The notes beneath the pieces were generated by a model. It saw only the letters and a program-made list of their open reading frames with translations. It did no database searches and had not been told where the DNA came from. This document shows positions 277 to 59,473 of a stretch of 64,000 nucleotides of DNA, piece by piece. The stretch is taken from assembly GCA_919902765.1 (NCBI GenBank), contig CAKKRP010000028.1, forward strand, positions 6,743-70,742, written 5' to 3'. The stretch's first letter is position 1; each line of letters opens with the position of its first letter. The position numbers and the translations under genes were made by a program. Origin of the DNA: Gammaproteobacteria bacterium (GTDB taxonomy: Bacteria; Pseudomonadota; Gammaproteobacteria; S012-40).

Positions 277-2042
277 GCCTTGATATCCAACATCGATTTT
301 CCCATCGGTAACGGCGGGTCGGTTTGGTCCGCCACCGATCCTGCGAGGCAATGCAGGTGTTGCACTTCGAGCCCATTCGCAGCGAGCGCCCCGCGTAATT
401 TTGCAAGTTCCGTTTGGGCCTTGACCAGCGTCGGCGCGCGTTCGGCATAAAATACGACGGATACGTTTTTATCCAGCAAGCTAATGCGCGCCGACAGCGG
501 CCCCAGCGGCTCAATATCCGTCGCCAGTGTCACACAAAACGGCGCACGACCCTGCGCATCACGACGCGTGGTGTCTTCTTCGATGCGCATGCGCAAGGTG
601 TGGAGTTGTTGCGACAATTGCACAGGCAATTCAAACGTCCATACCGTTTGTTGATTCTGGTGGGCGGTGAGCGCCGCTAATTGATGCACTTGTTGACGTG
701 CCAATGCGCCTTCAGCGGATTTCGTTACTGCGGTAAATATCGCCTCGTCATGCGTCGCACGGGTGTGCGGTTTTAATTTTTTGGTATCTGGCGTGGGCAT
801 TTTTGCATTTTTAGGCGGGGTATCGACAAACGCGTCCGCTGTTGCGCGAGGCGCATTTGTATTGATAGGCGTAGTTGATTGATTAGCACTGGCCGCAATA
901 ACCGGTGGCACCTGCGTGCGTGGTGCGGGAACCACGCCACCGGCCTGATGCGTTGGCAATGGGGTGTCGTTAGTGATGGTAGCCTTCGCCGTGGCCCCGC
1001 TAGGGAATGCGCGATCTTTGGATGTGGTTGTACGCGCAACCGCATCTGTGGTCTCCGGCGTAGTCGTTGGGCCTACAATCACGACGGGGATGTCGCGTGT
1101 GGGTGTGGCAGACGCAGGCGCGGTTTGCGTGGCTGTCGCCGCCGGCGCGGGGTTGGTGGCCGGCGTTGTTGGCGCAAGTGCCGACGCCTTAGGCGGCAGC
1201 GGCTCGATGGGTGCCGGTGGAGCTGTTGCGGGGCGCGTGGTTAAATGGGGGGTGACCGCTTCCGGCGCGGCCTCAGCGGCCGTTGTGGAGGCTTCTGGAG
1301 CCATAGCTAGCGCATTTTTTGGTGACGATGTTGGGGTGGTCGCTGGGGTGGTGGGCGGGGACGGTTGCAGTTGCTGCACCAGCCTGAGCAAGGCCGCTTT
1401 AAAATCGGTGGTGGAGATCGTGGCGGGTGTCTCGGTCGCGGTGGAAGAGAGCGCTTGCGCCAAGCGATGTTCCAAAAAAATGCCGGAGTTACGCACCGCA
1501 TCCTGCACGCCCTTGGCGGTGGTCAATTGGTGCGCAGGCACGGCTTGTTGGGTGAACTGTTGCGTGGCATCATTCAGCGCCTTCAGTTGTGGCGTGGCCT
1601 GGGTTGTATCCAGCGCCTTGAGCATGGCAAACACATCCTGCACCAGTTTTTCCAACGATTGTTGTTGCGGCAACACATTCAGCAAGGCCTGCATACGTTG
1701 CAGGGCCTCGGTTTGTTGTGCGGTGATTTGCGGCATGATTTGCAACACCAAGGTCGCGCCAGCGTTGAGTATGCGTAAACTCAATTGTTGGCCGTTAAAC
1801 AACGGCACTTCGGTTTTGGCCTGGATTAATTTATTCGCGATTTCCAAGATGACGGTATGTGGGTCCAACGTCTCGACTACACGCGCCATTACTACCGTCT
1901 CCGCGTTTGGGTCGCCCTGCGGGCTGGGCGTGGGCGAGCCGCTAGTGGCGCGGTCAGGCGGGATGAATTGCTTAAATATATTGGAAATATCCATCGTCGC
2001 GGTCTCAATCAACCTTGGGCAAGCGATATGGGTGACGGCCAA
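273..2042 (-). CDS. fliK: Flagellar hook-length control protein FliK-like
   Basis: 589 aa with a long Pro/Thr/Ala-rich low-complexity centre. The C-terminus (TVWTFELPVQLSQQLHTLRMRIEEDT...LGPLSARISLLDKNVSVVFYAERAPTLVKAQTELAKLRGALAANGLEVQHL) matches the conserved FliK C-terminal Flg_hook domain. The start may instead be the internal Met at about 1994. Confidence 0.6.
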   Translation of the reverse strand: MAVTHIACPRLIETATMDISNIFKQFIPPDRATSGSPTPSPQGDPNAETVVMARVVETLDPHTVILEIANKLIQAKTEVPLFNGQQLSLRILNAGATLVLQIMPQITAQQTEALQRMQALLNVLPQQQSLEKLVQDVFAMLKALDTTQATPQLKALNDATQQFTQQAVPAHQLTTAKGVQDAVRNSGIFLEHRLAQALSSTATETPATISTTDFKAALLRLVQQLQPSPPTTPATTPTSSPKNALAMAPEASTTAAEAAPEAVTPHLTTRPATAPPAPIEPLPPKASALAPTTPATNPAPAATATQTAPASATPTRDIPVVIVGPTTTPETTDAVARTTTSKDRAFPSGATAKATITNDTPLPTHQAGGVVPAPRTQVPPVIAASANQSTTPINTNAPRATADAFVDTPPKNAKMPTPDTKKLKPHTRATHDEAIFTAVTKSAEGALARQQVHQLAALTAHQNQQTVWTFELPVQLSQQLHTLRMRIEEDTTRRDAQGRAPFCVTLATDIEPLGPLSARISLLDKNVSVVFYAERAPTLVKAQTELAKLRGALAANGLEVQHLHCLAGSVADQTDPPLPMGKSMLDIKA

Positions 2043-20402: not shown

Positions 20403-21167
20403 GTGCAGCAGTTACGTATTTTGGTGAGCAATGACGACGGCTATCTTGCGCCAGGTATTATCATCTTAGCAAAAACTTTAGCATCGGCAGGTGACATAAC
20501 GGTCGTCGCGCCCGATAGAAATCGCAGCGGAGCAAGCAACTCGCTGACCCTAGAAAGGCCATTGCGCGCCTTTGGCGTAGGCCCACAGCGCTATCGTGTC
20601 GATGGCACGCCCACCGATTGCGTACACCTGGCGGTCACTGGTCTGCTGGATTTTGAGCCTGATATGGTCGTCTCCGGCATTAACAACGGCGCCAATTTAG
20701 GCGATGATGTTATTTATTCAGGAACGGTGGCAGCGGCCATAGAAGGGCGTTTTCTAGGGCTGCCCGCGATTGCGGTGTCGCTGGTCGGCCACGCGGGCGT
20801 TCACTACGAAACGGCCGCGCATGTGGCATTGCGTCTGGTAGAGACCTTGCGCAAAGAACCCTTGCCTGCCGATACCATACTCAACGTGAATGTCCCGGAT
20901 TTACCGCTGAGTGAATTGCGTGGCTACGCAGTCACGCGCTTAGGGCGGCGGCATCGCGCCGAACCGGTGATTAAATCCGAAGATCCGCGTGGCCAGCCTA
21001 TCTATTGGGTAGGGCCAGCGGGGCCAGAGCAAGATGCAGGACCGGGCACCGACTTCCATGCCGTGCGCAATGGGCAGGTGTCGGTGACGCCCATACAAAT
21101 TGATCTTACCCGGTATACGGCCATGGAGACAGTGGCGAACTGGCTCGTCCACCTGGATTTAGCATGA
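20403..21167 (+). CDS. surE: 5'/3'-nucleotidase SurE
   Basis: [11 protein letters not shown]-terminal motif. GTG start with GAGGAG SD 6 nt upstream. Confidence 0.9.
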
Positions 21168-21823
21168 GTATACGCCTGCAAGGCATAGGAATGACATCCT
21201 CACGCACGCGTGAGCGCATGTTGCTACGCTTGCAGAAACAAGGCATCATCGATGAGCGGGTACTCGACGCCATGCGCCATATCCCGCGCCATATTTTTGT
21301 AGACGAGGCCCTGGCGAGCCGCGCCTATGAAGACAGCGCGTTGCCGATAGGGTATGCGCAGACGATTTCGCGCCCCTTTACGGTGGCGAAAATGACCGAG
21401 ATATTGCTGAGTTCCCAGCCGCACAGTGTGCTGGAAATCGGCACCGGTTCAGGTTATCAAACGGCCATCTTGGCCACTACTATCGATCACGTCTACACCG
21501 TGGAGCGTATATTTTCGCTGCAACAACGGGCGCGCGAACGGGTGGCGGAATTAGGTTTGCGCAACGTGCGTTTTAAACACGATGACGGGCAAACCGGGTG
21601 GGTGCAGCATGCCCCCTACGACGCGATTTTGGTCGCCGCAGCGTCACCGGAAATCCCAGCGGCCCTATTGCAACAATTGGCGATTAACGGGCGCTTGATT
21701 ATGCCTACCGGTGAGGGTACCCACCAAGTATTGAGTTTAGTGGTGCGTACGAGCGATGGTTTTGAACAACAAAATTTGAGTACCGCCAGTTTCGTACCGT
21801 TAGTGCATGGCGTTAAACGCTGA
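21164..21823 (+). CDS. pcm: Protein-L-isoaspartate O-methyltransferase
   Basis: SAM-binding motif [13 protein letters not shown]. Overlaps the surE stop, in the classic surE-pcm arrangement. Confidence 0.9.
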
Positions 21824-21873
21824 TTTTTCGTTTCAACATTACATTCGGTAAATATCAACGCGAGGAAGGCGGC

Positions 21874-22617
21874 GTGGATAAAATAATCTGCGCGTGTATC
21901 GCGTTATGGTTAGCGGGTTGTGGCAGCCATGTCTACCACGTGGTGCGCCCAGGTGACACCTTGTATGCCATTGGTTGGCGTCACAATCAAGATTATCGCG
22001 ATATTGCTGCTTGGAACGACATCCCTCCCCCCTATATTCTAAAACGCGGCCAGCGCTTACGCGTCGCGCCGCGCGTGGCGGTCGTATCCACCAACACCCC
22101 ACCGACGAATTCGCTTTCTGCACCGCGCACGCCTCTAAAAACTGTTCCCCAAACTGCCCCCTTTGCCGCGCCAAAAAATGAGGAAAACGCACCGTCTCCT
22201 TTTAGCGACAGCGAGAATGGCATTGTATGGCGATGGCCTGCACAAGGCAGCCTCGTAAGGGTATTTTCAGGTGTATACCCCACAAATAAGGGAATTGATA
22301 TCGACGGCATTTTAGGACAGCCGGTGTATGCGGCGGCGAGCGGTCGAATAGTTTACAGTGGTAGTGGACTTATTGGATACGGCAAGCTTATTATTGTCAA
22401 ACATAACGATATATTTCTAAGCGCCTATGCCCATAATAATGAAGTGTTGGTAAACGAGGGGGACGCAGTGAGCGCTGGACAGCAGATTGCACGCATGGGT
22501 AGGACGGGGACTGAGAGGGCGATGTTGCATTTTGAAATACGCCGAAATGGTAAACCTATCAATCCTATTGAGTATTTGCCAAGGCGTCATCTGCAGCAAT
22601 TGGAGGACAGCGGGTGA
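21874..22617 (+). CDS. nlpD: Lipoprotein NlpD (LysM + M23 peptidase domains)
   Basis: Lipoprotein signal (ALWLAGCGS), a LysM segment ([15 protein letters not shown]…), and a C-terminal M23 domain (…GIDIDG…[14 protein letters not shown]…[13 protein letters not shown]). Sits immediately upstream of rpoS. Confidence 0.85.
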
Positions 22618-23588
22618 AAGATAACCAAGTTGAATCAGAACCTGGAGAGGATTTACTAGAACTCGAAGAACCAGGAGAAGTTGAGCAAGCATTGGCAGTG
22701 GATGCAGAGGAAGAAGTCGTTGAAATCGCCGCCGTTGCAGGCGATTCGCTGGACGAACAACTCGATGCGACGCGCCTTTATTTGAGTGAGATCGGATTTT
22801 CGCCCTTATTAAGCGCCATCGAAGAAGTATACTTTGCGCGCTTGGCGCAACGTGGCGATGCCGAAGCGCGGCGACGCATGATCGAGAGTAATCTGCGTCT
22901 GGTGGTGAAAATCGCGCGCCGCTATTTGAATCGTGGTTTGGCTTTGCTCGATTTGATTGAAGAAGGCAATCTCGGGTTAATCCATGCCGTCGAAAAATTC
23001 GATCCCGAACGTGGGTTTCGCTTTTCGACCTATGCCACCTGGTGGATACGCCAGACAATAGAACGCGCTTTGATGAATCAAACGCGCACCATACGATTGC
23101 CCGTGCATGTGGTGAAAGAAATCAATGTGTATCTACGCGCCGCGCGCAAATATGCGCAAACTCAAGACCACGAACCCAGCCCCGAAGAAGTCGCAAAATT
23201 TTTAGATAAACCTATTGAAGAGGTTAAGCGCATGCTCGGCTTAAACGAGCGTGTAACCTCGGCGGACGAAACCTTAAACGGTAGCGATAAGACCGTGCTC
23301 GACGGTATACCCGATGAGCAAAACATCGATCCCGCATTGATTCTGCATGATGACGATGTACGCCGCCATATCGAGCACTGGTTACAGCTCTTGAATGAAA
23401 AACAACGCCAAGTAGTGGAGCGTCGCTTCGGGCTCAATGGGTATCGCATCGCGACATTGGAAGAAGTCGGTACCGAGATCGGCGTCACACGTGAACGCGT
23501 ACGTCAAATACAGGTCGAGGCCTTGGGGAGATTACGTGAGATTTTAGAAAAAACGGGGTTTTCGGCCGACACCCTTTTTAGCGGGTGA
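22614..23588 (+). CDS. rpoS: RNA polymerase sigma factor RpoS
   Basis: Sigma-70 region 2 ([37 protein letters not shown]), 3 and 4 are present, and the acidic N-terminus resembles E. coli RpoS. GTG start overlapping the nlpD stop. Confidence 0.95.
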
Positions 23589-27267: not shown

Positions 27268-27567
27268 ATGTCTAAAGAAGTAGGTCAGTTGGTGATAGAA
27301 AGCGTTAAAGAAGACGGCCGCGCGTTTCGGCCGAGTGATTGGATTGAACGCATTTCGTCGGTATTGGGTAGTTTTGGAACGGATCATCGTTTGCACTATG
27401 CGAAAAGTGTACAGCCGCGCTCGATTAACGGCCAAAAATGCCTGGTTGTGGATGATGCGTTGAAGGAAGAGAATCCCGCCGCCTACGAATATATTTTAAA
27501 TTTTGCAGCATCAAACGGTCTGCGCGTACACCATGAGCGGCTCGCGCAAGACGAAAAATCCGCATAA
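27268..27567 (+). CDS. DUF3579-like small protein
   Basis: 99 aa (MSKEVGQLVIESVKEDGRAFRPSDWIERISSVLGSFGTDHRLHYAKSVQPRSINGQKCLVVDD…), a conserved hypothetical. Preceded by a GGGG SD. Confidence 0.45.
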   Translation: MSKEVGQLVIESVKEDGRAFRPSDWIERISSVLGSFGTDHRLHYAKSVQPRSINGQKCLVVDDALKEENPAAYEYILNFAASNGLRVHHERLAQDEKSA

Positions 27568-27619
27568 TCTGGCAGCGCGTCCGATGGAAGATTAACTCCA
27601 CCGGACGCAACACCTTTAA

Positions 27620-28453
27620 TCAACTGCTGACGTGCCGTTCGCGCATCTCCGAAAGCGTCTTACATTCTATACACAGCGTTGCCGTTGGGCGTGCCTCTAA
27701 GCGGCGGATACCGATTTCGTCGCCACACTGTTCACAAAAGCCATATTCATGTGCGTCTAACGCCGCAAACGCCTCATCGATCTTTTTAATGAGTTTGCGT
27801 TCGCGATCGCGCGCGCGCAGCTCCATCGTGAACTCGGACTCTTGTGTTGCGCGATCATTGGGATCAGGGAAATTGGCGGCCTCGTCTTGCATGTGATGAA
27901 CGGTACGATCCACTTCCTCCATTAACACGCGCTTCCATTCGCGCAGAATGTTGCGGAAATGCGCCTCTAGGCCTGAGCTCATGTAGTCCTCGCCCTTCTT
28001 TTCCACATAAGGCGCGATTCCTAAAAAACCTAGCGTGCCACTTGCCCCGGAATTGGCGTTAGGGGCAGGGTTAGAGGAACTTGGCCGTGGCGACGCAGCG
28101 GGCTTGGCCGGCATAGGCTTGGGGGTGCTGCCGACTTTGGCCGTAACAGGCGTAGGCGCAGGTGCTTTAGGCGCGGGTTTTTCGGCCGCTGGTGCAGCGC
28201 TGGGTTTGCTGACAACCTTGGTACGCGCAGGCGTTTTGGTCGCAGTTTTGGCGGCAACGGACGCTTTGCTCGCGTTGGACTTAGTAGGCGTAGATTTCAC
28301 TATAGTTTCCTTAGCGGTCGCTTTGGTCGGTTTGGTCGGTTTAGCTTTGGGCGGCGGTGACTTTTTGGCCGCAGGTTTGGAAGGCGACGACTTGCCACCA
28401 GCCTTAGCGGGTCCTTTGGCTGGTTTGCTGGATTTGGGTTTTTTAACTACCAT
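27620..28453 (-). CDS. dksA: DksA/TraR-family RNA-polymerase-binding transcription factor with long Lys/Ala/Pro-rich histone-H1-like N-terminal extension
   Basis: The C-terminal approximately 130 aa is a canonical DksA coiled-coil with a C4 zinc finger (CEQCGDEIGIRRLEARPTATLCIECK). The N-terminal approximately 140 aa is KKPKSSKPAKGPAKAGGKSSPSKPAAKKSPPPKAKPTKPTKATAK…, resembling H1/AlgP-type KAP repeats. Confidence 0.8.
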   Translation of the reverse strand: MVVKKPKSSKPAKGPAKAGGKSSPSKPAAKKSPPPKAKPTKPTKATAKETIVKSTPTKSNASKASVAAKTATKTPARTKVVSKPSAAPAAEKPAPKAPAPTPVTAKVGSTPKPMPAKPAASPRPSSSNPAPNANSGASGTLGFLGIAPYVEKKGEDYMSSGLEAHFRNILREWKRVLMEEVDRTVHHMQDEAANFPDPNDRATQESEFTMELRARDRERKLIKKIDEAFAALDAHEYGFCEQCGDEIGIRRLEARPTATLCIECKTLSEMRERHVSS

Positions 28454-28594
28454 CCGCGTGCTGCTCCATCACGAGGTTAAAGTGAAGCTCACCTTTCTAC
28501 CAAAATCTAACCTCCATGACAAGTGATGCGTTGCATAAAAATGAGTCTTGGTGATTGAACTCGCTCGGAACGGTATACTATGGGCAAATAATGC

Positions 28595-38844: not shown

Positions 38845-38921
<77 letters not shown>

Positions 38922-50716: not shown

Positions 50717-52006
50717 GTGTCGAGAGCAGTTATGAATTTTCGTGAATTTAAACAAGCGGGCCATTGGCCCACCTTACTAGCCGCGTTTTTATATTTTGAT
50801 GTGAGTTTTATGGTGTGGGTGGTATTAGGCCCGCTGTCACTTTATGTCAGTCAAGATTTGGCGTTGAGTATTGAAGAAAAATTTACGATAGTGGCGGTGC
50901 CGATACTCGCAGGTGCATTGTTGCGTATGCCACTGGGTTTTCTCGCAGATCACATAGGGCCAAAACGCACCGGTATTGCAGCGCAGTCTATCGTTATTGC
51001 AGGAATGGCCTACGCCTGGATTTTTGGTTTGCATTCCAAGGTCGAGGTGGAATTATTGGGTATTGTTTTAGGTGTGGCAGGCGCAAGTTTCGCAGTAGCG
51101 CTGCCACAAGCCTCGCGGTGGTATCCGCCTAAATATCAAGGGGCGGTCATGGGTATCGCGGGTGCCGGAAATATGGGCGTCGTGCTCGATTCGATGTTTG
51201 TACCGTGGATGGCGGAACATTGGGGTTGGCAATCCGTGTTTGGTATATTGATTATCCCGTTAGCAATAGTACTCGGCCTATATAGTTTGATGGCCAAAGA
51301 TGCGCCTCAGTCACGCGCGCCGGTATCGTTAAAAAATTATGCTGTAGTGTTGCAAGATCGCGATACTTGGTGGTTTATGTTTTTTTATTCCATCACGTTC
51401 GGTGGCTTCGTGGGCCTAGGGAATGCGTTGCCGATTTATTTCACCCATTGGTATCACGCATCTGGAATCACGGCGGGGCTATTGGCCGCCTGCGTGGTAC
51501 TGGCGGGTTCGATGGCGCGGCCCGTCGGTGGGGTCGTCGCGGATCGTTTTGGCGGTATACGTACGCTACAGATTTTATTTGTGTTCATCGCATGCACCTA
51601 TGGTGCAGTAGCGCTGCTGCCGCAAGGACCTGCGCCCACGATGCTGGATGGCGCAAAGGTTGCGGGCTGGACGTTAGCGGAATTGCCCGCGATTGCATGG
51701 ATTGCAATGACAATATTTTTATTGGGCGCGACCGCGTTAGGGATGGGCAACGGATCGGTGTTTCAATTGGTGCCGTTGCGATTTCGCAACGAAATCGGCG
51801 TCATGACGGGCCTGGTCGGTGCCGCAGGCGGAATCGGAGGCTTTTTTCTGGCCAAGTCCTTAGGACTATCGAAAGGCATAACCGGGGGATTTACGGCCGG
51901 ATTTTCGATATTTGCCGGGCTCGCAATCATCGGGCTCGTTGGCTTGGTAGTCGTTAAAACGCGTTGGCGCACTACGTGGGGCGCGGTGTCAGGTGCGCGC
52001 GTGTGA
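50717..52006 (+). CDS. narK: MFS nitrate/nitrite transporter (NNP family, NarK/NasA-like)
   Basis: 12-TM MFS protein with glycine-rich nitrate/nitrite porter signature regions (…GIAGAGNMGVV…, …GLVGAAGGIGGFF…). First gene of the nitrate assimilation cluster. Confidence 0.85.
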   Translation: MSRAVMNFREFKQAGHWPTLLAAFLYFDVSFMVWVVLGPLSLYVSQDLALSIEEKFTIVAVPILAGALLRMPLGFLADHIGPKRTGIAAQSIVIAGMAYAWIFGLHSKVEVELLGIVLGVAGASFAVALPQASRWYPPKYQGAVMGIAGAGNMGVVLDSMFVPWMAEHWGWQSVFGILIIPLAIVLGLYSLMAKDAPQSRAPVSLKNYAVVLQDRDTWWFMFFYSITFGGFVGLGNALPIYFTHWYHASGITAGLLAACVVLAGSMARPVGGVVADRFGGIRTLQILFVFIACTYGAVALLPQGPAPTMLDGAKVAGWTLAELPAIAWIAMTIFLLGATALGMGNGSVFQLVPLRFRNEIGVMTGLVGAAGGIGGFFLAKSLGLSKGITGGFTAGFSIFAGLAIIGLVGLVVVKTRWRTTWGAVSGARV

Positions 52007-52043
52007 CGAATGAAATGCCAACGAAATATTATCATATGTACCA

Positions 52044-53759
52044 TTGATGATGACCCAATCCGCAATGGAAGTTCGTGTCGGCTTTTTAACTGAGGCAGGG
52101 CGGCGACCCAGCAACGACGATTTTATTTTGGCTGCAATGGGAGAAAACTCCCTGCTTGCCGACGTTGTGGTTTCGATCGCGGACGGCACGGGTGGAAGCC
52201 CGGAGGGGAGGATGGCGGCAGAAACCGCCGTACGCGGATTTTTAGACGCCTACCTCCACCAACCAAAAACCCTCAGCGTAGAACGCGCCGCCGCCAATGC
52301 GTTAAATTGCATGAATAATTGGCTATATGCGCAAGGTCGTAGCGGCCACCATCGCGAAGGATTGGTAACGACATTCACCGCATTAATTTTACGCGCACGC
52401 GAAGCGCATATTGTGCATGTCGGCGATACGCGTATTTATCGCTTGCGTGGCGAACGCCTGGCGCGTTTAACGCAGGATCACACCCATCCGCATCCCGATT
52501 TACATCATGTGTTGGTGCGCGCAGTGGGGATGGAAGATCAAGTGCGTGCGGACTATCAGCGCCATTCATTGGAGGCGCACGATAGATTTTTATTGTGTAC
52601 CGACGGCGTACACGCGGCATTGAACGAGGGAAAAATATGCGCCCTTATGGCGATGCGCGGCACCCCGCAAGAAGACGCGGCGCGTATTGTCGAGTCCGCG
52701 CTAGCAGCGAGTGGACAAGACAACGCCACGGCGTTGGTATTGGATATTTTGGCCTTACCTTCTGCGTTACATAGAGACATCGAATCGTCATTAGCGGAAT
52801 TACCCATCGCGGAGTTACCGCAGGCCGGAGAAATCACTGATGGCTATCGGTTGTTGTCCGCAATCTCAAATGGACGCTATAGCCGATTATTCCATGCGTT
52901 AGATACAAAAAATTCTAATCGCGAAGTGGCGCTGAAATTCCCACATCCACGAGTGGCGCAAGATGCAATTTATAGAAGTGCATTTACGCGCGAATCGTGG
53001 GTGGCCTCTCAAGTGCAAAGTCCGTATCTCGCGGAAGTAATCGAACCGGAACCGGGCCGCCGTACGCGTTTATACGTGGTAATGCCGTTTTATCGCGGTG
53101 AAACGTTAGAATGTAGACTAAAACGTCAACCTGCGGTGAGCTTGGTCGAAGGAGTGGATATTGCGATCAAATTATCTAAGGCGATCTACGCGCTCAATCG
53201 TAGGCGAATCATACACCGCGATATTAAACCGGAAAATATTTTATTGGAACTAGGCGCTGCGGGCGCAAGTGGTTTACGCTTGATCGATTTGGGGGTGGCG
53301 CGTCTGCCCGACGTAAACGCTGACGGCGATGTAGTTCCGGGTACGCCCAGTTACATGGCGCCCGAGTTGATTCTTGGACAAGCCGGTGATGAATTCTCTG
53401 AGGTATACGCGCTAGGTGTTAGTTTGTATCGCATGTGGAGCGGTGGTGAATATCCGTACGGAGAAATAGAACCCTTCTCTACGCCACGCTATACAAAACG
53501 TGTTGCGCTGGCGCGTTACCGTCCTGATCTTCCCGCGTGGCTTGATCAAGTGTTAGCGCGCGCAACCGCAGTTGATCCCGCACAACGCTATGCCGACACC
53601 ATGGAATTCGCATTTGAATTGGAAAACGCGGCGCTCAAAGGGGCGCAATTACGCGTGCGGCACAGCCCCTTAATAGAACGCGATCCGGTGCGATTTTGGC
53701 AGGTGATTTCTGCAATTTTATTGTTAATGTTGATTCTAGCATTGGCGTTCCACAGTTGA
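52044..53759 (+). CDS. PP2C-type Ser/Thr phosphatase fused to Hanks-type Ser/Thr protein kinase, C-terminal TM anchor
   Basis: N-terminal PP2C motifs (GRRPSNDD, ADGTGGS, VGDTRIY, LTQDH, CTDGV, QDNATALV). The C-terminal kinase carries VALKF, HRDIKPENILL, IDLGVAR and GTPSYMAPE. The terminal hydrophobic helix is FWQVISAILLLMLILALAF. Confidence 0.8.
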   Translation: MMMTQSAMEVRVGFLTEAGRRPSNDDFILAAMGENSLLADVVVSIADGTGGSPEGRMAAETAVRGFLDAYLHQPKTLSVERAAANALNCMNNWLYAQGRSGHHREGLVTTFTALILRAREAHIVHVGDTRIYRLRGERLARLTQDHTHPHPDLHHVLVRAVGMEDQVRADYQRHSLEAHDRFLLCTDGVHAALNEGKICALMAMRGTPQEDAARIVESALAASGQDNATALVLDILALPSALHRDIESSLAELPIAELPQAGEITDGYRLLSAISNGRYSRLFHALDTKNSNREVALKFPHPRVAQDAIYRSAFTRESWVASQVQSPYLAEVIEPEPGRRTRLYVVMPFYRGETLECRLKRQPAVSLVEGVDIAIKLSKAIYALNRRRIIHRDIKPENILLELGAAGASGLRLIDLGVARLPDVNADGDVVPGTPSYMAPELILGQAGDEFSEVYALGVSLYRMWSGGEYPYGEIEPFSTPRYTKRVALARYRPDLPAWLDQVLARATAVDPAQRYADTMEFAFELENAALKGAQLRVRHSPLIERDPVRFWQVISAILLLMLILALAFHS

Positions 53760-53798
53760 ATTCAACTGCTATACACCATTGACTCCAGTGCCGGAGAT

Positions 53799-53815
53799 TG
53801 CACCATAGTGGTGCA
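53799..53815 (+). promoter_or_regulatory. NtrC (NR-I) binding site
   Basis: Perfect palindrome TGCACCA-tag-TGGTGCA, which is the NtrC consensus TGCACCA-N3-TGGTGCA. It lies about 120 bp upstream of a sigma-54 promoter. Confidence 0.65.
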
Positions 53816-53935
53816 TAGGCCTGGAAAGCGCTCCCCGCTGTTGTGCATGTAACTTGTTAAGTGGAATTCGATTAAGCATTGACAATCGCACATAACATAT
53901 TGTTAAATATCGTTATTATGACATTTAATGCAGTT

Positions 53936-53950
53936 TGGCATGGAGCTTGC
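53936..53950 (+). promoter_or_regulatory. Sigma-54 promoter for nirBD-nasA
   Basis: TGGCAT-ggagc-TTGC matches the -24 GG / -12 GC spacing of sigma-54 promoters. It lies about 45 nt upstream of the nirB GTG start, which has a GGAGGTGG SD. Confidence 0.6.
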
Positions 53951-53993
53951 CGAGTGACTACTAATAGGCGCTTGGTGCCGACGGAGGTGGAAC

Positions 53994-56447
53994 GTGCAAG
54001 AGCAATTGGTTTTGGTCGGTAATGGTATGGCGGGTGTGCGTACATTGGAAGAATTATTAAAAATTGCGCCTGATAAATATGCTATCACGGTGTTTGGTGC
54101 GGAATGTTACGGAAATTACAATCGCATTTTGTTATCACCGGTGCTCGCCGGAGAAAAAAACGTCGATGACATCATGTTGAATGATGAACAATGGTATGTA
54201 GACAATAAAATAACCTTGCACAAAGGCAAGACCATTACACATATTGACCGGCGCAAACGTATCGTCGTCGCGGACGACGGCACCACCGCGCATTATGATC
54301 GCTTACTGCTAGCGACAGGCTCCGATCCCTTCATTTTGCCGATTCCGGGCAGCCACCTGCCCGGCGTAATCAGTTTCCGCGATTTGCATGACGTAGAAAT
54401 TATGTTGGAAACATCGCGCAATTATAAACACGCGGTCGTTATCGGGGGCGGATTGTTAGGATTGGAAGCCGCCAACGGCCTGCGCAAACAAGGTATGAGC
54501 GTAACCGTCGTGCATATTCATGGCCATTTGATGGAACGCCAACTCGATTATGCGGCCGCTAGCCTATTAAAAAAAGCCATGGAACAAGACGGCATACGCT
54601 TTTTTTTAGAAAAAAATACGGCTGCTATTTTAGGACAGGAACGTGTCACCGGAATCCAATTCAAAGATGACCAGCGCATAGATGCAGACCTCGTGGTCAT
54701 GGCGGCCGGTATACGCCCGAATATACGTTTGGCAAAATCGGTGGGCCTGCAATGCGATAAAGGTGTATTGGTCAATGACACGATGCAAACCTTCGACCCC
54801 CGCATTTACGCGGTCGGCGAGTGCGTACAACATAGGGGCAGTACCTACGGATTGGTCGCACCTTTGTTCGAGCAAGCAAAGGTGTGTGCAAATCATTTAG
54901 CAGCCTACGGTATCGCGCGTTACGAAGGTAGCGTGACATCTACGAAGTTAAAAGTGACCGGTATCGAAGTGTTTTCCGCCGGAAATTTCCATAGCACGGA
55001 TAAAGACGACGAAATCGTGTTTACCGATGGCGCGCGCGGTATTTATAAAAAAATAGTACTACGCAACAATAAAATTCAAGGCGCGGTACTCTATGGTGAC
55101 ACCATGGACGGCGCTTGGTACTTCCAACTTATGCGTGAAAAGGCGGATGTTGCGCACATGCGCGACAATATCTTGTTCGGTCAAGCGCATCTAGGAGACG
55201 CCGGGCATGGCGATGAAAAACAACACGTCAACGCCTTGCCCGCGAATGCCGAGATTTGCGGCTGTAACGGCGTATGTAAAGGCACCATAGTTGACGCCAT
55301 TATCAATAAAAAACTGTTTACCTTGGATGAAGTGCGCGCGCACACCAAGGCATCTAGTTCTTGTGGTTCATGCACGGGATTGGTGGAATCGTTGTTAGCG
55401 GCTACGGTGGGCGGAGACTATTCAGCCAATCCCAAAAAGAAACCGTTGTGTCATTGTACCGATTACGCGCATGATGAAGTGCGCACGCTCATCGACAAGC
55501 GCGGGTTGAAATCTATGGATACCGCCATGCGTTCGATGGATTGGAAAACGCCGGACGGATGCCATGTGTGTCGGCCGGCCTTAAATTTCTATTTGCTCGC
55601 GCGATGGCCTGCGGAATATCAAGATGATGCGCAATCGCGCTTGGTCAACGAGCGTATGCACGCGAATATTCAAAAAGATGGAACATACTCCGTGGTGCCG
55701 CGCATATGGGGCGGTGTGACCAATCCTGCCGAACTGCGTGCGATTGCGGATGTCGCGGAAAAATATCAAATCCCGTCGGTGAAAATTACCGGGGGGCAAC
55801 GTATAGATCTGCTGGGGGTGACCAAGGAACAACTGCCCGCCGTATGGGCGGATTTGACCGAGGCGGGATTCGTATCCGGTCATGCCTATGGAAAATCCCT
55901 GCGCACCGTAAAAACATGTGTGGGCTCGGAATGGTGCCGTTACGGTACGCAGGATTCCACGGGCATGGGTGTCAAATTGGAAAAACTTACGTGGGGATCG
56001 TGGACGCCCCACAAATTCAAAATGGCCGTTTCCGGTTGTCCGCGCAATTGCGCTGAAGCCACCATAAAAGATTTTGGCGTGGTCGCGGTGGATTCGGGTT
56101 GGGAGCTACATGTAGGCGGTAACGGCGGTGTGAAAGTGCGTGCGACCGATTTCTTGTGTAAGGTGAATAGCGAGGCCGAGGTGATGGAATATGCTGCGGC
56201 CTTCATGCAGCTTTATCGTGAAGACGCCCGTTATTTGGAACGCACCGCGCCGTGGATAGAACGTGTGGGCCTTGCCTATGTAAAGCAACACATCGTCGAA
56301 AATGAGATTCGACGCAAACAATTGTATGAAAGTTTTAAAGACTCGCAACGCGCAGCGCAACACGACCCGTGGGCGCGTTTAAGCGCCGGTAACCATGCCG
56401 AGGGGTTCAAGACGTTAACAATGTCGAATCAAGAGGAGGTCGCGTGA
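53994..56447 (+). CDS. nirB: Assimilatory nitrite reductase [NAD(P)H] large subunit
   Basis: N-terminal FAD/NAD Rossmann fold (LVLVGNGMAGVRTLEEL), a BFD-like 2Fe-2S region, and a siroheme/4Fe-4S sulfite-nitrite reductase domain (…TCVGSEWCRYG…SGCPRNCAEA…). 817 aa. Confidence 0.95.
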   Translation: MQEQLVLVGNGMAGVRTLEELLKIAPDKYAITVFGAECYGNYNRILLSPVLAGEKNVDDIMLNDEQWYVDNKITLHKGKTITHIDRRKRIVVADDGTTAHYDRLLLATGSDPFILPIPGSHLPGVISFRDLHDVEIMLETSRNYKHAVVIGGGLLGLEAANGLRKQGMSVTVVHIHGHLMERQLDYAAASLLKKAMEQDGIRFFLEKNTAAILGQERVTGIQFKDDQRIDADLVVMAAGIRPNIRLAKSVGLQCDKGVLVNDTMQTFDPRIYAVGECVQHRGSTYGLVAPLFEQAKVCANHLAAYGIARYEGSVTSTKLKVTGIEVFSAGNFHSTDKDDEIVFTDGARGIYKKIVLRNNKIQGAVLYGDTMDGAWYFQLMREKADVAHMRDNILFGQAHLGDAGHGDEKQHVNALPANAEICGCNGVCKGTIVDAIINKKLFTLDEVRAHTKASSSCGSCTGLVESLLAATVGGDYSANPKKKPLCHCTDYAHDEVRTLIDKRGLKSMDTAMRSMDWKTPDGCHVCRPALNFYLLARWPAEYQDDAQSRLVNERMHANIQKDGTYSVVPRIWGGVTNPAELRAIADVAEKYQIPSVKITGGQRIDLLGVTKEQLPAVWADLTEAGFVSGHAYGKSLRTVKTCVGSEWCRYGTQDSTGMGVKLEKLTWGSWTPHKFKMAVSGCPRNCAEATIKDFGVVAVDSGWELHVGGNGGVKVRATDFLCKVNSEAEVMEYAAAFMQLYREDARYLERTAPWIERVGLAYVKQHIVENEIRRKQLYESFKDSQRAAQHDPWARLSAGNHAEGFKTLTMSNQEEVA

Positions 56448-56782
56448 GTGCATTGGCAGGCAACACAGAATTGGTTTGGCAACGCGTAGGCGCTGCGCAC
56501 ACGATACCCCGCCAAGGGGCGAGGGTGGTCAAAATAGGCGAGGTTAACGTTGCGATATTCAAAAATGTCAGCGATGAAATTTTTGCACTTGAAGATCGCT
56601 GCCCGCATAAAGGCGGGCCTTTGTCGCAAGGCATCGTACATGGGCGGCGCGTGACCTGTCCATTACATAACTGGGTGATAGAATTGCATGATGGCAATGC
56701 CGTCGCGCCGGATATCGGCTGCGTCAAGACCTTTAGCACCAAAGTGGTCAATGGCGACCTCTATATCGCGTTGTCGAAATGA
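56444..56782 (+). CDS. nirD: Nitrite reductase small subunit (Rieske-like)
   Basis: 112 aa with a Rieske-type fold (…EDRCPHKGGPLSQG…RRVTCPLHNW…), overlapping the nirB stop. Confidence 0.85.
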   Translation: MSALAGNTELVWQRVGAAHTIPRQGARVVKIGEVNVAIFKNVSDEIFALEDRCPHKGGPLSQGIVHGRRVTCPLHNWVIELHDGNAVAPDIGCVKTFSTKVVNGDLYIALSK

Positions 56783-56821
56783 AAATAGCGCGCGCCGACA
56801 CGACAACGAGGGACTAAATCT

Positions 56822-59473
56822 ATGCCATCTATACCTACCACCTGTCCTTATTGTGGCGTAGGGTGCGGCCTTATTGCGGAGCCGCAAGGAGATACCTTTG
56901 CGGTGCGCCCGGATCGCGATCACCCCGCCAATCTTGGACGTATATGTACCAAAGGGGCCACGTTAGGTGAGACGCTAGGCTTGCAGGGACGCATCTTAGC
57001 GCCTCTGGTACGGGGGCAAGAGACCGGTTGGGATGCAGCGTTGGAAGAAGTCGCCGGTTCATTTTCGCGCATCATCGCCGAACACGGCCCAGACGCGGTG
57101 GCGTTTTATGTGTCCGGGCAATTGCTTACCGAAGACTATTATGTCGCCAATAAATTGATGAAAGGATTTATCGGTAGCGGCAACATAGATACCAATTCTA
57201 GATTGTGTATGGCATCGGCGGTGGCGGCGCACAAACGCGCCTTTGGCGAGGACATTGTGCCGGGGAATTATGCCGACATCGAGCAGTCGGATCTTACGAT
57301 ATTGGTAGGCTCCAACATGGCGTGGACGCACCCGGTGTTGTACCAACGCCTCGCTGCGTCAAAAGAAAAAAATCCACACAAGCGCGTTGTCGTGATAGAT
57401 CCAAGGCGTACCGCGAGTTGCGATATTGCAGATCTACATTTGGCATTAAAACCAGGTACGGACGGATATTTATACAATGGTTTACTGAATTTTTTGCGCC
57501 GCGAAAACGCCTTCGATTGGGATTATTTAGAACACCACACCCACGGCTTTGCCGCGACACTTAAAGCGGCGCAGGAAAGCAGTGGGACGCTGCCGCAAGT
57601 GGCGCAGGACTGCGGGCTTGACGCCGCGCAGGTTGCACAATTTTACCGTTGGTTCGCACAAACGGCTAAAACCACGACCCTGTTTTCGCAAGGCATCAAT
57701 CAATCGTCTAGCGGTGTAGATAAAGGCAATGCGATTATCAACGTACATCTCGCAACGGGGCGCGTGGGCAAACCCGGTGCGAGCCCGTTCTCATTAACTG
57801 GGCAACCGAACGCGATGGGCGGGCGCGAAGTGGGTGGTCTGGCCAACACTTTGGCGGCACACATGGATTTTGCGCCGGAAAATTGCGCTATGGTCGGCGA
57901 ATTTTGGCAAACATCGCGCATCGCAACTCAGCCCGGCTACAAGGCGGTGGACATGTTCGAGGCCATTGCCGACGGGCGCATTAAGGCGGTTTGGATTATG
58001 GGCACCAATCCAGTGGTCAGCTTGCCGAATTCCGGACATATACGTGCAGCGCTAAAAAAATGTTCTTGTGTGATCGTCTCCGATTGCGCGCGATATACCG
58101 ACACCACGGCCTATGCGCATGTGCTATTGCCTGCCGCCGCGTGGGGAGAAAAGAGCGGCACAGTGACCAATTCCGAACGTTGTATATCGCGACAACGCGC
58201 TTTTTTGCCGACCCCAGGCTTGGCGCAGCCCGATTGGTGGATAATCACCCAGGTAGCGCACAAATTGGGTTACGCGAAGTCCTTTGATTACACGTCCAGC
58301 GCGCAGATTTTTCGCGAACACGCCGCCCTCAGCGCATACCATAATCATGGCCAACGCATTTTTGATATCGGCGCTTACGCGGATATCAGCGATCAACAAT
58401 ACGAGGCATTAACACCTATGCAATGGCCGTTGCCGGTGAACGTCCATCGAGGCACTGCGCGCCTATTTGCGCACGGTGGATTTGCGACGGCAAACCATAA
58501 GGCGCAATGGACGCCGATCATTCCGCGTGCTCCCCATGTAGCCGCAAATACAACATATCCGTTCATGCTTAACACCGGCCGGGTGCGTGATCAGTGGCAC
58601 ACGATGACACGCACGGCAAAAGTCCCACGTTTGTTGCAACACATCAGCGAGCCCTTGTTGTATATGCAACCATTGGATGCGCAACGCCTGGGCATGATCA
58701 ATGGCGACATCGCGCGCGTTACTTCTGCGCATGGTTTTGCGCTAGCACGAGTTGAATTTTCGCACGATATTGGCGCTGGCCAGTTATTTATGCCTATGCA
58801 TTGGAATGCGCAATTTGCCGTAAATGGCAGCGTTAATGCGATGGTTGCCTCGACCGTCGATCCGATTTCAGGACAACCGGAATTCAAGGCGACGGCGGTA
58901 CATGTGCGGCCTTTTAACGCGGCGTGGTATGCGGTGCTATTCACCACCGTGCCGATTGATACGGTTATGCCTGAATATTGCGTGCGCGTACCAGAGTCCA
59001 GTGTGACCCGATATGAAATGGCGGATACTAAAACTGCGTTAGACTGGCATACGTGGTTCGAGCAATTAATAAAAGATAGCGATGAGATCATCAAATATGC
59101 GGATCAACGGTTAGGTATAGTGCGTATGGGTAGCGTGCGCGCGGGGCAACTGCAAGCGGTACTATTTGTGTCGCCCAAACCGGTGATCGTTGATCGCGCG
59201 TGGTTGGCTGCGTTATTTGTGACGCCCATGTTGGCTACGCATGATCGCTCCGCGATACTGAGCGGACGCCCTCCAGTAGGGCGTGTCGAGGGCGGGGCGA
59301 TGGTATGTATTTGCATGGGTGTGCAGCGCAATACAATCGAACGCGCTATACACGCGCAAGGCGTTACGAACCTACAGGAATTACAAACATTAACTACCGC
59401 AGGTACATGCTGCGGCGCATGCGTGCCGCAATTGCAAGCGATCTTGACGCAAAATATGTTGCGCGCAGGTTAA
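56822..59473 (+). CDS. nasA: Assimilatory nitrate reductase catalytic subunit (molybdopterin oxidoreductase) with C-terminal BFD-like [2Fe-2S] domain
   Basis: N-terminal 4Fe-4S motif CPYCGVGCG…C, MGD-binding domains, and a C-terminal CICMGV…CCGAC BFD-like cluster motif. 883 aa. Confidence 0.9.
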   Translation: MPSIPTTCPYCGVGCGLIAEPQGDTFAVRPDRDHPANLGRICTKGATLGETLGLQGRILAPLVRGQETGWDAALEEVAGSFSRIIAEHGPDAVAFYVSGQLLTEDYYVANKLMKGFIGSGNIDTNSRLCMASAVAAHKRAFGEDIVPGNYADIEQSDLTILVGSNMAWTHPVLYQRLAASKEKNPHKRVVVIDPRRTASCDIADLHLALKPGTDGYLYNGLLNFLRRENAFDWDYLEHHTHGFAATLKAAQESSGTLPQVAQDCGLDAAQVAQFYRWFAQTAKTTTLFSQGINQSSSGVDKGNAIINVHLATGRVGKPGASPFSLTGQPNAMGGREVGGLANTLAAHMDFAPENCAMVGEFWQTSRIATQPGYKAVDMFEAIADGRIKAVWIMGTNPVVSLPNSGHIRAALKKCSCVIVSDCARYTDTTAYAHVLLPAAAWGEKSGTVTNSERCISRQRAFLPTPGLAQPDWWIITQVAHKLGYAKSFDYTSSAQIFREHAALSAYHNHGQRIFDIGAYADISDQQYEALTPMQWPLPVNVHRGTARLFAHGGFATANHKAQWTPIIPRAPHVAANTTYPFMLNTGRVRDQWHTMTRTAKVPRLLQHISEPLLYMQPLDAQRLGMINGDIARVTSAHGFALARVEFSHDIGAGQLFMPMHWNAQFAVNGSVNAMVASTVDPISGQPEFKATAVHVRPFNAAWYAVLFTTVPIDTVMPEYCVRVPESSVTRYEMADTKTALDWHTWFEQLIKDSDEIIKYADQRLGIVRMGSVRAGQLQAVLFVSPKPVIVDRAWLAALFVTPMLATHDRSAILSGRPPVGRVEGGAMVCICMGVQRNTIERAIHAQGVTNLQELQTLTTAGTCCGACVPQLQAILTQNMLRAG

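Follow-up and report, generated by a model that had tools for sequence, protein, structure and literature searches.

The 64,000-nucleotide stretch of DNA analysed here, referred to as the window, carries a gene whose product is almost certainly a bona fide DksA, judged from its sequence, and which bears a long polycationic tail ahead of the canonical core. DksA is a ppGpp-dependent factor whose coiled coil is inserted into the secondary channel present in RNA polymerase (RNAP), and it is usually shown as acting purely through the polymerase, never touching DNA. That picture derives from the tail-less DksA of E. coli and its close relatives. Among the nearest relatives of the present gene, most carry a polycationic tail, between 30 and ~300 aa long, and the E. 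coli form may therefore be unrepresentative of them. We lean, with modest confidence, towards reading the protein as a genuine DksA, started at position 28453, whose disordered polycationic tail would act as a tether to DNA or the nucleoid. The tail is real, but related bacteria commonly have one and precedents for it have been published. It counts as under-studied rather than new, and the present gene adds an example rather than a discovery.

Gene structure, start codon and the DksA core

The features of the locus, all on the minus strand, are as follows.

27620..28453 (-): long-form dksA coding sequence, 277 aa plus TGA, identified by DksA domain and equivalog matches
28061..28453 (-): polycationic, predicted-disordered tail, codons 1-131, from composition, AF2 pLDDT and analogous tails in relatives
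27620..28060 (-): canonical DksA core, codons 132-277, from alignment with E. coli DksA
27848..27865 (-): coiled-coil tip D197-P-N-D200-R-A202, equal to E. coli D71, D74 and A76 by pairwise mapping
27662..27736 (-): C4 zinc finger C240, C243, C261 and C264, from Pfam and mapping to E. coli C114, C117, C135 and C138
28451..28453 (-): ATG start of the long form, first start in the ORF and conserved in the closest relative (L081/P0001)
28464..28467 (-): Shine-Dalgarno-like GGAG, 10 nt ahead of the ATG, kept in L081, with a presumed function
28494..28522 (-): putative sigma-70 promoter, read from the sequence, its hexamers kept in L081
27576..27609 (-): 14-bp stem-loop directly past the stop, between the convergent dksA and DUF3579 genes

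Tail and DksA share one continuous frame, as originally predicted: a single 277-aa ORF spans the locus. In the ORF listing it opens at the first ATG past an in-frame stop, with no earlier in-frame start. Pfam places DksA_N (PF21157) at residues 164-230 of the protein (E 8e-32, 109.7 bits; cut-off 27) and zf-dskA_traR (PF01258) at residues 236-267 (E 2e-12, 47.1 bits; cut-off 24.9). The TIGR02420 dksA model is passed with 163.7 bits against a cut-off of 115.5, and the enterobacterial model NF008045 (PRK10778) gives 198 bits, under its cut-off of 289. Residues 6-149 of E. coli DksA (PDB 1TJL) match residues 132-275 of the query (E 3e-55), with a pairwise identity of 59% over about residues 132-276. 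The description of a standard DksA with coiled coil and C4 zinc finger therefore stands, except that this part makes up about half of the protein (~146 of 277 aa) rather than its C-terminal two-thirds.

The core takes in the N-terminal portion of the globular domain along with the coiled coil, the zinc finger and the C-terminal helix. Its tip motif DxxDxA is invariant across 30 homologues. E. coli residues R91, K94, K98, R125, R129 and K139, which the literature assigns to ppGpp site 2 and to contacts with RNAP, are identical here (R217, K220, K224, R251, R255 and K265), and pairwise mapping shows L95 to be kept likewise. Two differences from E. coli DksA stand out: an alanine in place of N88, where the consensus of the 30 homologues reads ELRARDRERK, and 126 extra aa ahead of the position of E. 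coli Met1. The AF2 model places core helices at residues 160-193, 198-233 and 262-276, and its pLDDT averages 69-92 in 10-residue blocks from residue 141 onward. Against the closest relative, core substitutions fall 16/10/73 at codon positions 1/2/3, a skew that indicates purifying selection. Binding in the RNAP secondary channel and potentiation of ppGpp would be expected from the 59% identity to E. coli DksA.

The long form opens identically in the closest relative (MVVKKPKSS), whose core is ~89% identical and whose contig, L081, is an independent metagenomic contig with the same DUF3579 neighbour gene. DNA identity between the two reaches 96% over the ATG and codons 1-9 and drops to 48% in the remaining tail. 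The 76 nt upstream of the start are 85% identical, against ~47% farther upstream, and the tail frame stays intact across 111 nt of net indels. The original prediction had weighed an internal methionine as an alternative start. This residue, M158, lies within the conserved domain: it corresponds to E. coli M32, is invariant in 30 homologues and is preceded by residues that are invariant or nearly so in the same set (P148, Y149, G154, E155 and Y157). A start at this position would therefore truncate the fold. The ATG at 28453, as first proposed, is the best-supported start, and comparison with relatives makes it very probable that the tail is translated in the present organism. A shorter tail, begun at an internal start (for example, GTG-52 or M114), is less likely.

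The GGAG-to-ATG distance of 10 nt is rather long. Within the 76-nt conserved block, a putative promoter consists of a -35 hexamer TTGTCA (28517..28522), a 17-nt spacer ending in TGG and a -10 hexamer TAGAAA (28494..28499). The assignment to sigma-70 is a reading of that block, and a scan for consensus promoters and terminators made no call on the dksA strand. Downstream, the stem-loop folds at -32.1 kcal/mol (z -4.3), a stability that no sequence among 200 shuffles reaches. It has no adjacent T-run and, from its fold, is likely a transcription terminator. Rfam offers no RNA element that accounts for the conserved 5' block, either at the locus (E <= 1) or over the whole window, where the only match is a tRNA-Met at 38845..38921.

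The genomic context of dksA is thrC / DUF3579 / HAD hydrolase. A surE-pcm-nlpD-rpoS cluster is also present and fits a gammaproteobacterial origin. Two further candidates were discarded. An 8-codon out-of-frame mini-ORF over the start (ATG GAG CAG ... TAA) is broken after two codons in L081 and does not qualify as a conserved uORF. An antisense ORF of 163 aa (28035..28526, plus strand) has no Pfam match and mirrors the Xanthomonas ORF XCV2557. Another open frame of 75 aa crosses the low-complexity stretch on the same strand as dksA.

Composition and distribution of the tail

The tail (residues 1-131) contains 27 K, 27 P, 26 A, 17 S, 13 T, 2 E and no D, so that K, P and A each contribute ~20%, S 13% and T 10%. 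Its net charge is +27 and its pI 11.3. About +21 of this charge falls within residues 1-80, and residues 81-131 are P/A/S-rich and nearly neutral. The tail is charge-dilute: it has ~2 charges in every 10 aa and 0-2 across the 60 residues adjoining the core; the family mean is 2.8-4.3. The AF2 model predicts neither helix nor strand before H160, and pLDDT lies below 50 over most of residues 1-141 (10-residue block means 40-51).

The original prediction of a highly basic tail is thus upheld, whereas its description as a KAP/KPA repeat region gives way to one of biased composition. Tandem Repeats Finder detects one array only, 9 bp x 3 (KPT KPT K), at 28316..28342. No regular array of S/TPKK, KPAA or S/T-A/T-A-K-K units occurs in the tail, although isolated KPAK, KPTK, SPSK, TPTK and KPAA motifs are present. 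Neither a Pfam search with the whole protein (E <= 0.1) nor one with the tail by itself (E <= 1) matches any family in the tail, HC2 (PF07382) included. Homology to H1, HC2 or AlgP is for that reason not claimed. The proposed likeness to H1, AlgP and Hc1 holds in composition only, and the K/P/A make-up is nearer to the KPAA type than to the K-dense H1.

Shared codon usage between tail and core, another element of the original prediction, is at best weakly apparent: per codon, the frame-0 log-likelihood ratio reaches 0.27 in the core and 0.05 in the tail. No other sense frame of the tail does better than frame 0, yet one antisense frame scores above it. Such ratios are uninformative on low-complexity sequence, and comparative evidence was relied on instead.

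Absence of the tail from close relatives, which the original prediction had entertained, is not what is found: they carry it. Among the 79 nearest species genomes, with loci selected by the core, 52 had an in-frame basic tail 30 aa or longer, which makes the extension the majority state among the nearest relatives in the orthologue survey that had been suggested. In a core-only search, 71 of the 150 best representatives of 50%-identity clusters had such tails, a proportion inflated in favour of tailed forms by the clustering itself. The first homologue search works by word sharing and is biased to tailed proteins; it was left out of the prevalence estimates. With these counts and the precedents in Xanthomonas and in the Streptomyces protein DdbA, the architecture can no longer be called unusual. 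The best cores in the scanned genome collection come from MAGs and are 63-78% identical. The nearest-relative MAGs are labelled Thiohalomonadaceae, Ectothiorhodospiraceae and Chromatiales.

Tail length among relatives ranges from 0 to ~300 aa, and whole families are tail-less (Thiodiazotropha, Sedimenticolaceae and Thiohalocapsa). Tail state and length are alike among cores that are at least 92% identical. Species genomes supplied 54 tails that are 35 aa or longer. These are unalignable, with a median K+R content of 33%, a median D+E content of 0% and a median net charge of +27; net charge scales with length (r = 0.77). Many homologues with a DksA tail hold precomputed PF07382 matches. A putative N-terminal M-[PA]-[AT]-K-K-K motif in the tails carries little weight, being partly circular because the rule used to pick starts demanded K or R after the start. 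The same type of in-frame tail in dozens of independent relatives indicates more than chance, and the composition of these unalignable sequences appears to be under selection.

Proposed function and alternative readings

The DksA core most probably functions as it does in E. coli. The tail would project off the globular domain, outside the secondary channel, and its likeliest role would be that of a non-specific tether that binds polyanions, chiefly DNA. Such a tether could concentrate DksA on the nucleoid or touch DNA flanking the polymerase. By analogy with characterised basic tails, we put the chance that it works as a DNA or nucleoid tether at about even; nucleoid tethering is a reasonable reading with an experimental precedent in DdbA. 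DNA binding by the tail, and any effect on transcription, would follow from this analogy. Any polycation binds DNA in vitro, and an electrophoretic mobility shift assay (EMSA) alone would be no proof of a physiological tether. As a processed, shorter DksA occurs in Xanthomonas, the tail may also be removed in vivo.

A different polyanion, such as polyphosphate (polyP) granules or RNA and ribosomes, could be the ligand instead, coupling DksA to polyP or to condensates. We consider this unlikely, though it has several points in its favour. According to work cited in the AlgP literature (Gray 2019), DksA reportedly regulates polyP accumulation in E. coli. The lysine-rich disordered C-terminal domain (CTD) of AlgP localises to polyP granules, for which an electrostatic interaction with polyP has been proposed (PMC9239181, PMC11894788). 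The composition of the present tail resembles the KPAA type more than K-dense H1, and the affiliation of the nearest MAG relatives with Thiohalomonadaceae, Ectothiorhodospiraceae and Chromatiales points the same way. Against this, the sole tail-DksA fusion to have been tested, DdbA, both binds DNA and condenses it. DNA is also bound by the H1-like tails of AlgP and PhaF (PMC11894788), so binding of polyP and of DNA is not mutually exclusive.

It is also improbable that the tail is a fast-evolving low-complexity expansion without a specific ligand, at most an entropic spacer, a solubility tag or a proteolytic handle. Solvent exposure of the DksA N-terminus would let such an expansion be tolerated. 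Tail identity at random level (48%) with many indels, next to a core identity of ~89%, would fit this view, as would the wide range of lengths, the tail-less families and the processed variant in Xanthomonas. The tight composition of unalignable tails nevertheless argues otherwise, with almost no D or E, a median of 33% K+R and charge correlated with length; acidic residues would not stay out under neutral drift. Most lineages keep the tail, its length is similar in close relatives, and both frame and start are conserved.

That the tail is untranslated, with the true start at M158 or later and the open frame a T-poor, GC-rich accident or an assembly artefact, is very improbable: several frames are indeed open on both strands (75 aa on the same strand, 163 aa antisense), codon statistics are not decisive and the scanner called no consensus promoter, but core residues are conserved before M158, the E. 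coli alignment starts at residue 132, the ATG, first nine codons and 5' region are conserved in the independent contig L081, dozens of independent assemblies share the architecture and the equivalent Xanthomonas extension is proven to be translated.

If the tail tethers DksA to DNA or polyP, the effective concentration of DksA, its promoter selectivity or its stress coupling would be altered in many environmental sulfur-oxidisers and plant pathogens. More tentatively, the orthodox DksA, a textbook case of a transcription factor that leaves DNA unbound, may be tethered to the nucleoid or to polyP across sulfur-oxidiser lineages and the Xanthomonadaceae, a large and for the most part uncultivated section of the Gammaproteobacteria. 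The polycationic tail would then shift the place and strength of DksA action, for example, by concentrating it locally on DNA, by touching DNA that flanks RNAP or by linking the stringent response to polyP, with tail length and charge tuned by lineage. For genome annotation, gene callers easily cut such tails off, as the Xanthomonas case illustrates, and the tails create spurious antisense ORFs.

Comparison with known systems

The closest precedent is the long DksA of Xanthomonas euvesicatoria 85-10 (XCV2556), which grew from 147 to 256 aa on re-annotation (PMC5559785). The mass spectrometry peptide AAPAAAKPAAKPVASK maps upstream of the old start, the new start was confirmed by mutagenesis and a processed, shorter form was seen (PMC5559785). 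The authors propose deletion of the antisense ORF XCV2557 over the extension, whose histone-like nature or function their paper does not discuss (PMC5559785). Compared by description and by this peptide, the Xanthomonas protein resembles the present one in its in-frame, K/A/P-rich extension of ~110 aa and in the spurious antisense ORF that covers it (XCV2557 there, 28035..28526 on the plus strand here). It differs in its GTG start with proof at the protein level, whereas the ATG here is supported by comparison.

DdbA of Streptomyces coelicolor (SCO2075) has an H1-like N-terminus of 93 aa with a pI of 10.5 and a tail length that varies among orthologues (PMC3643593). Its H1-like N-terminal domain binds DNA in EMSA, whereas the DksA-like C-terminal domain does not, and the tail alone both binds and condenses DNA (PMC3643593). 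The protein is reported as streptomycete-specific, with a conserved position near ftsZ (PMC3643593). Domain order is the same as here: a basic, low-complexity H1-like N-terminus precedes a coiled coil and C4 zinc finger of the DksA type, and both Asp residues of the coiled-coil tip are present. The DdbA core resembles DksA only distantly (BLAST E 8e-11 against the E. coli protein), in contrast to the 59% identity of the present core, and its tail is built of S/T-A/T-A-K-K pentapeptide repeats, whereas the tail here is non-repetitive, proline/serine-rich and less charged. From this comparison by description, of core similarity and genomic context, the shared architecture is most likely convergent rather than orthologous, and orthology to SCO2075 is unlikely.

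AlgP/AlgR3 and PhaF of Pseudomonas, chlamydial Hc1/Hc2 (PF07382) and the C-terminal domain of eukaryotic histone H1 share with the present tail a K/A/P-rich, disordered, strongly basic segment. In these proteins the segment is C-terminal or forms the whole protein, whereas here it is N-terminal. AlgP contains regular KPAA repeats and H1 contains S/TPKK motifs; the tail here has neither a repeat array nor a profile match.

A further parallel lies in CarD. A variant of the CarD type with an H1-like tail is said to have been described by Garcia-Heras et al. in 2009 (PNAS 106:13546). The myxobacterial CarD joins an RNAP-binding CarD_CdnL_TRCF domain to a basic DNA-binding tail of the HMGA type (PMC2919716). 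The design principle is the same as the one proposed here, an RNAP-interacting module combined with a basic, non-specific DNA-binding tail. In CarD, by contrast, the tail sits at the C-terminus, and the RNAP-binding domain is unrelated and contacts the beta subunit rather than the secondary channel.

Gene layout and the DksA core

The gene is carried in the following setting, in window coordinates.

27620..28453 (-): dksA, a single 277-codon ORF opening at the first ATG past an in-frame stop
27268..27567 (+): DUF3579 (PF12112) gene, directly downstream of dksA and convergent with it
27576..27609: GC-rich hairpin of 14 bp between dksA and the DUF3579 gene (wider structure 27565..27622; -32.1 kcal/mol, z -4.3)
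upstream of dksA, divergent: HAD-hydrolase gene
20403..23588 (+): surE-pcm-nlpD-rpoS cluster
50717..59473 (+): nitrate-assimilation cluster (NarK-family transporter, NirB, NasA/NasC-like molybdoenzyme)

By its layout, dksA is monocistronic. The hairpin is probably a bidirectional terminator, and no T-run adjoins it on the dksA strand. In L081, the contig of the closest relative, a DUF3579 gene likewise follows dksA closely on the other strand (1103..1417, -). The surE-pcm-nlpD-rpoS cluster is consistent with a gammaproteobacterial origin of the window, which further contains smc-ligA, one tRNA-Met, and, after a homoserine dehydrogenase gene, a PALP-family ORF (probably thrC). Between narK and nirB sits an inserted gene for a 571-aa protein with a PP2C-type phosphatase N-terminus and a Ser/Thr kinase domain, which may be a regulator.

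The C-terminal half of the DksA product is orthodox, as family matches, alignment, retained residues, and predicted helices jointly establish. Pfam places DksA_N at residues 164-230 (E 8e-32) and the dksA/traR C4 zinc finger at residues 236-267 (E 2e-12). The NCBIfam equivalog TIGR02420 'dksA' is matched at 163.7 bits (cut-off 115.5), and the score for the enterobacterial model NF008045 falls under its cut-off. Residues 132-275 align without gaps to residues 6-149 of Escherichia coli DksA (PDB 1TJL; E 3e-55, 59% identity). In E. coli numbering, the coiled-coil tip (D71, D74, A76), R91, K94, L95, K98, R125, R129, K139, and the four zinc-finger cysteines are kept. The sole difference among the residues checked is N88, replaced by Ala, which also occupies this position in the consensus of 30 homologues (ELRARDRERK). 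An AlphaFold2 model built from 30 homologues contains helices at 160-193, 198-233, and 262-276, with pLDDT of 69-92 (10-residue block means) from residue 141 onward.

Ahead of this core, the tail (residues 1-131) comprises 27 K, 27 P, 26 A, 17 S, 13 T, 8 V, 2 R, 2 E, and 0 D, with a net charge of +27 and a pI of 11.3. Residues 1-80 hold about +21 of this charge, and residues 81-131 form a near-neutral P/A/S stretch. The region is predicted to be disordered: pLDDT stays below 50 over most of residues 1-141 (block means 40-51), and the model contains no helix or strand ahead of H160. No other K/A/P-rich segment occurs in the window's 43 long ORFs. The original prediction likened it to H1, AlgP, and Hc1. 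That likeness holds for composition but not for homology or repeat structure, since Pfam gave no match to the tail, searched alone or within the full protein, and TRF found no repeat array save a 9-bp unit in three copies at 28316..28342.

Translation of the tail from position 28453

Sequence statistics of the query alone are weak evidence for translation of the tail. The coding strand is T-poor across this stretch, where a second sense frame (75 aa) and, antisense to the tail, a 163-aa L/G/A-rich ORF (28035..28526, +) are open too. Codon log-likelihood barely exceeds zero in frame 0 and is surpassed by that of one antisense frame. The antisense ORF, although gene callers may annotate it, was rejected as a gene: it has no Pfam match and is an artefact, a shadow of low-complexity sequence, just like XCV2557. 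That antisense gene likewise lies opposite the dksA extension of Xanthomonas euvesicatoria, and its deletion has been proposed (PMC5559785).

Comparison with the closest relative provides strong evidence that translation would begin at 28453. Its DksA, P0001, encoded on the 1.4-kb Logan contig L081, has a core about 89% identical to the query and the same N-terminus, MVVKKPKSS. DNA identity reaches 96% over codons 1-9 and 85% over the 76 nt upstream of the ATG (28454..28529, -), dropping to 47% farther upstream and 48% in the tail beyond codon 9. The start is thus conserved, and the frame runs on continuously despite 111 nt (37 codons) of net indels between the two tails. Core substitutions number 16/10/73 at codon positions 1/2/3. 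Two elements were read from the sequence of the conserved upstream block.

10 nt ahead of the ATG (-): GGAG
within the block (-): candidate promoter, TTGTCA and TAGAAA, with a 17-nt spacer ending TGG (TGn extended -10)

A promoter scanner made no call for this candidate, and Rfam returned no match to the 76-nt block, which could be a promoter or leader, e.g., for autoregulation.

Initiation at the internal Met named originally is disfavoured. This residue, M158 (E. coli M32), is invariant in homologues; with conserved P148, Y149, G154, E155, and Y157 all N-terminal to it, and alignment to E. coli DksA from residue 132, a start there would forfeit part of the globular domain. Shorter DksA products may arise through internal starts or processing. 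Core matches, composition, and the comparative start evidence bear out the predicted ORF and its basic tail, with minor corrections.

Basic tails among relatives

Relatives were taken as the 80 best loci picked by core peptides (MAGs and isolates, 50-78% identity), labelled Thiohalomonadaceae, Ectothiorhodospiraceae, Chromatiales, Thiotrichales, Sedimenticolaceae, and others. The frame was read upstream from each core for in-frame basic low-complexity sequence. Such a tail reaches at least 30 aa in 52 of 79 loci and at least 20 aa in 58, and is absent from 17. The group below 20 aa includes Thiodiazotropha, Sedimenticolaceae, Thiohalocapsa, Thiocapsa, and one Pseudomonas. When 1.84 billion cluster representatives (50% identity) were searched with the core only, a basic tail of at least 30 aa was present in 71 of the top 150 matches, a fraction inflated because variable tails split clusters at 50%; N-terminal extensions extend to about 300 aa. 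Tailed proteins are labelled plainly 'DksA' in databases. By these counts, a tailed DksA is the common state around the query gene, and the architecture is not the unusual one originally supposed.

Tails recur under a compositional constraint. Those of at least 35 aa have medians of 81 aa, 33% K+R, 0% D+E, and a net charge of +27, equal to that of the query, whose tail is long but charge-dilute relative to the family. Net charge rises with length (r = 0.77). Between cores at least 92% identical, tail state is mostly shared and lengths are similar.

Many tails open with an M-[P/A]-[A/T]-K-K-K-A-A-like motif (MVVKKPKSS in the query), the remainder being unalignable. This motif may reflect constraints on translation initiation or N-terminal processing, an argument that is partly circular because the start-picking rule demanded K/R after the start codon. 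At the family extreme, far beyond the query, four cluster representatives (P0137, P0201, P0160, P0143) have basic tails of 190-300 aa and total lengths up to 452 aa, and would be the most suitable proteins for tests of tail function.

Tail function and known systems

Given 59% identity and full conservation of functional residues, the query would enter the RNAP secondary channel as E. coli DksA does. In E. coli DksA structures, the N-terminus is part of the globular domain, which remains outside the channel, so the tail would be free to extend. A disordered chain of some 130 residues would, roughly estimated, span a distance of order 10 nm and could reach DNA or keep DksA at the nucleoid.

Acidic residues are nearly missing from tails that otherwise cannot be aligned, a pattern that favours selection for a polycationic chain, and hence putative polyanion binding. 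DNA is the best-precedented ligand, by analogy with DdbA of Streptomyces coelicolor. The main rival is polyphosphate or RNA: AlgP and PhaF bind DNA through H1-like tails, and AlgP is also found at polyphosphate granules (PMC9239181, PMC11894788). Next comes a near-neutral appendage or proteolytic handle. An untranslated tail is unlikely on the comparative evidence.

The original interpretation is partly supported: the tether to DNA or the nucleoid stands as the best-precedented reading, and the claim of an unusual architecture falls. Literature on a histone-like tail of an orthodox proteobacterial DksA as such was not found in a search with subscription journals largely outside its scope. In X. 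euvesicatoria, the dksA annotation was lengthened from 147 to 256 aa by proteogenomics, with a peptide, AAPAAAKPAAKPVASK, upstream of the former start; the first GTG was identified as the start codon by mutagenesis, and a processed variant was detected too (PMC5559785). In CarD of myxobacteria, a domain that binds RNAP is linked to a basic DNA-binding tail of HMGA type (PMC2919716), and the title of Garcia-Heras et al. 2009, cited there, indicates an H1-like variant. DdbA itself carries, ahead of a DksA-like domain, a 93-aa H1-like N-terminus (pI 10.5, S/T-A/T-A-K-K repeats). DNA is shifted in EMSA, and condensed, by this N-terminus and not by the C-terminal domain; the authors regarded the fusion as streptomycete-specific and as the first NAP that could couple DNA conformation to RNAP (PMC3643593). 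A tailed DksA is therefore already known: relatives commonly have one, its translation is verified in Xanthomonas, and DdbA supplies a functional precedent.
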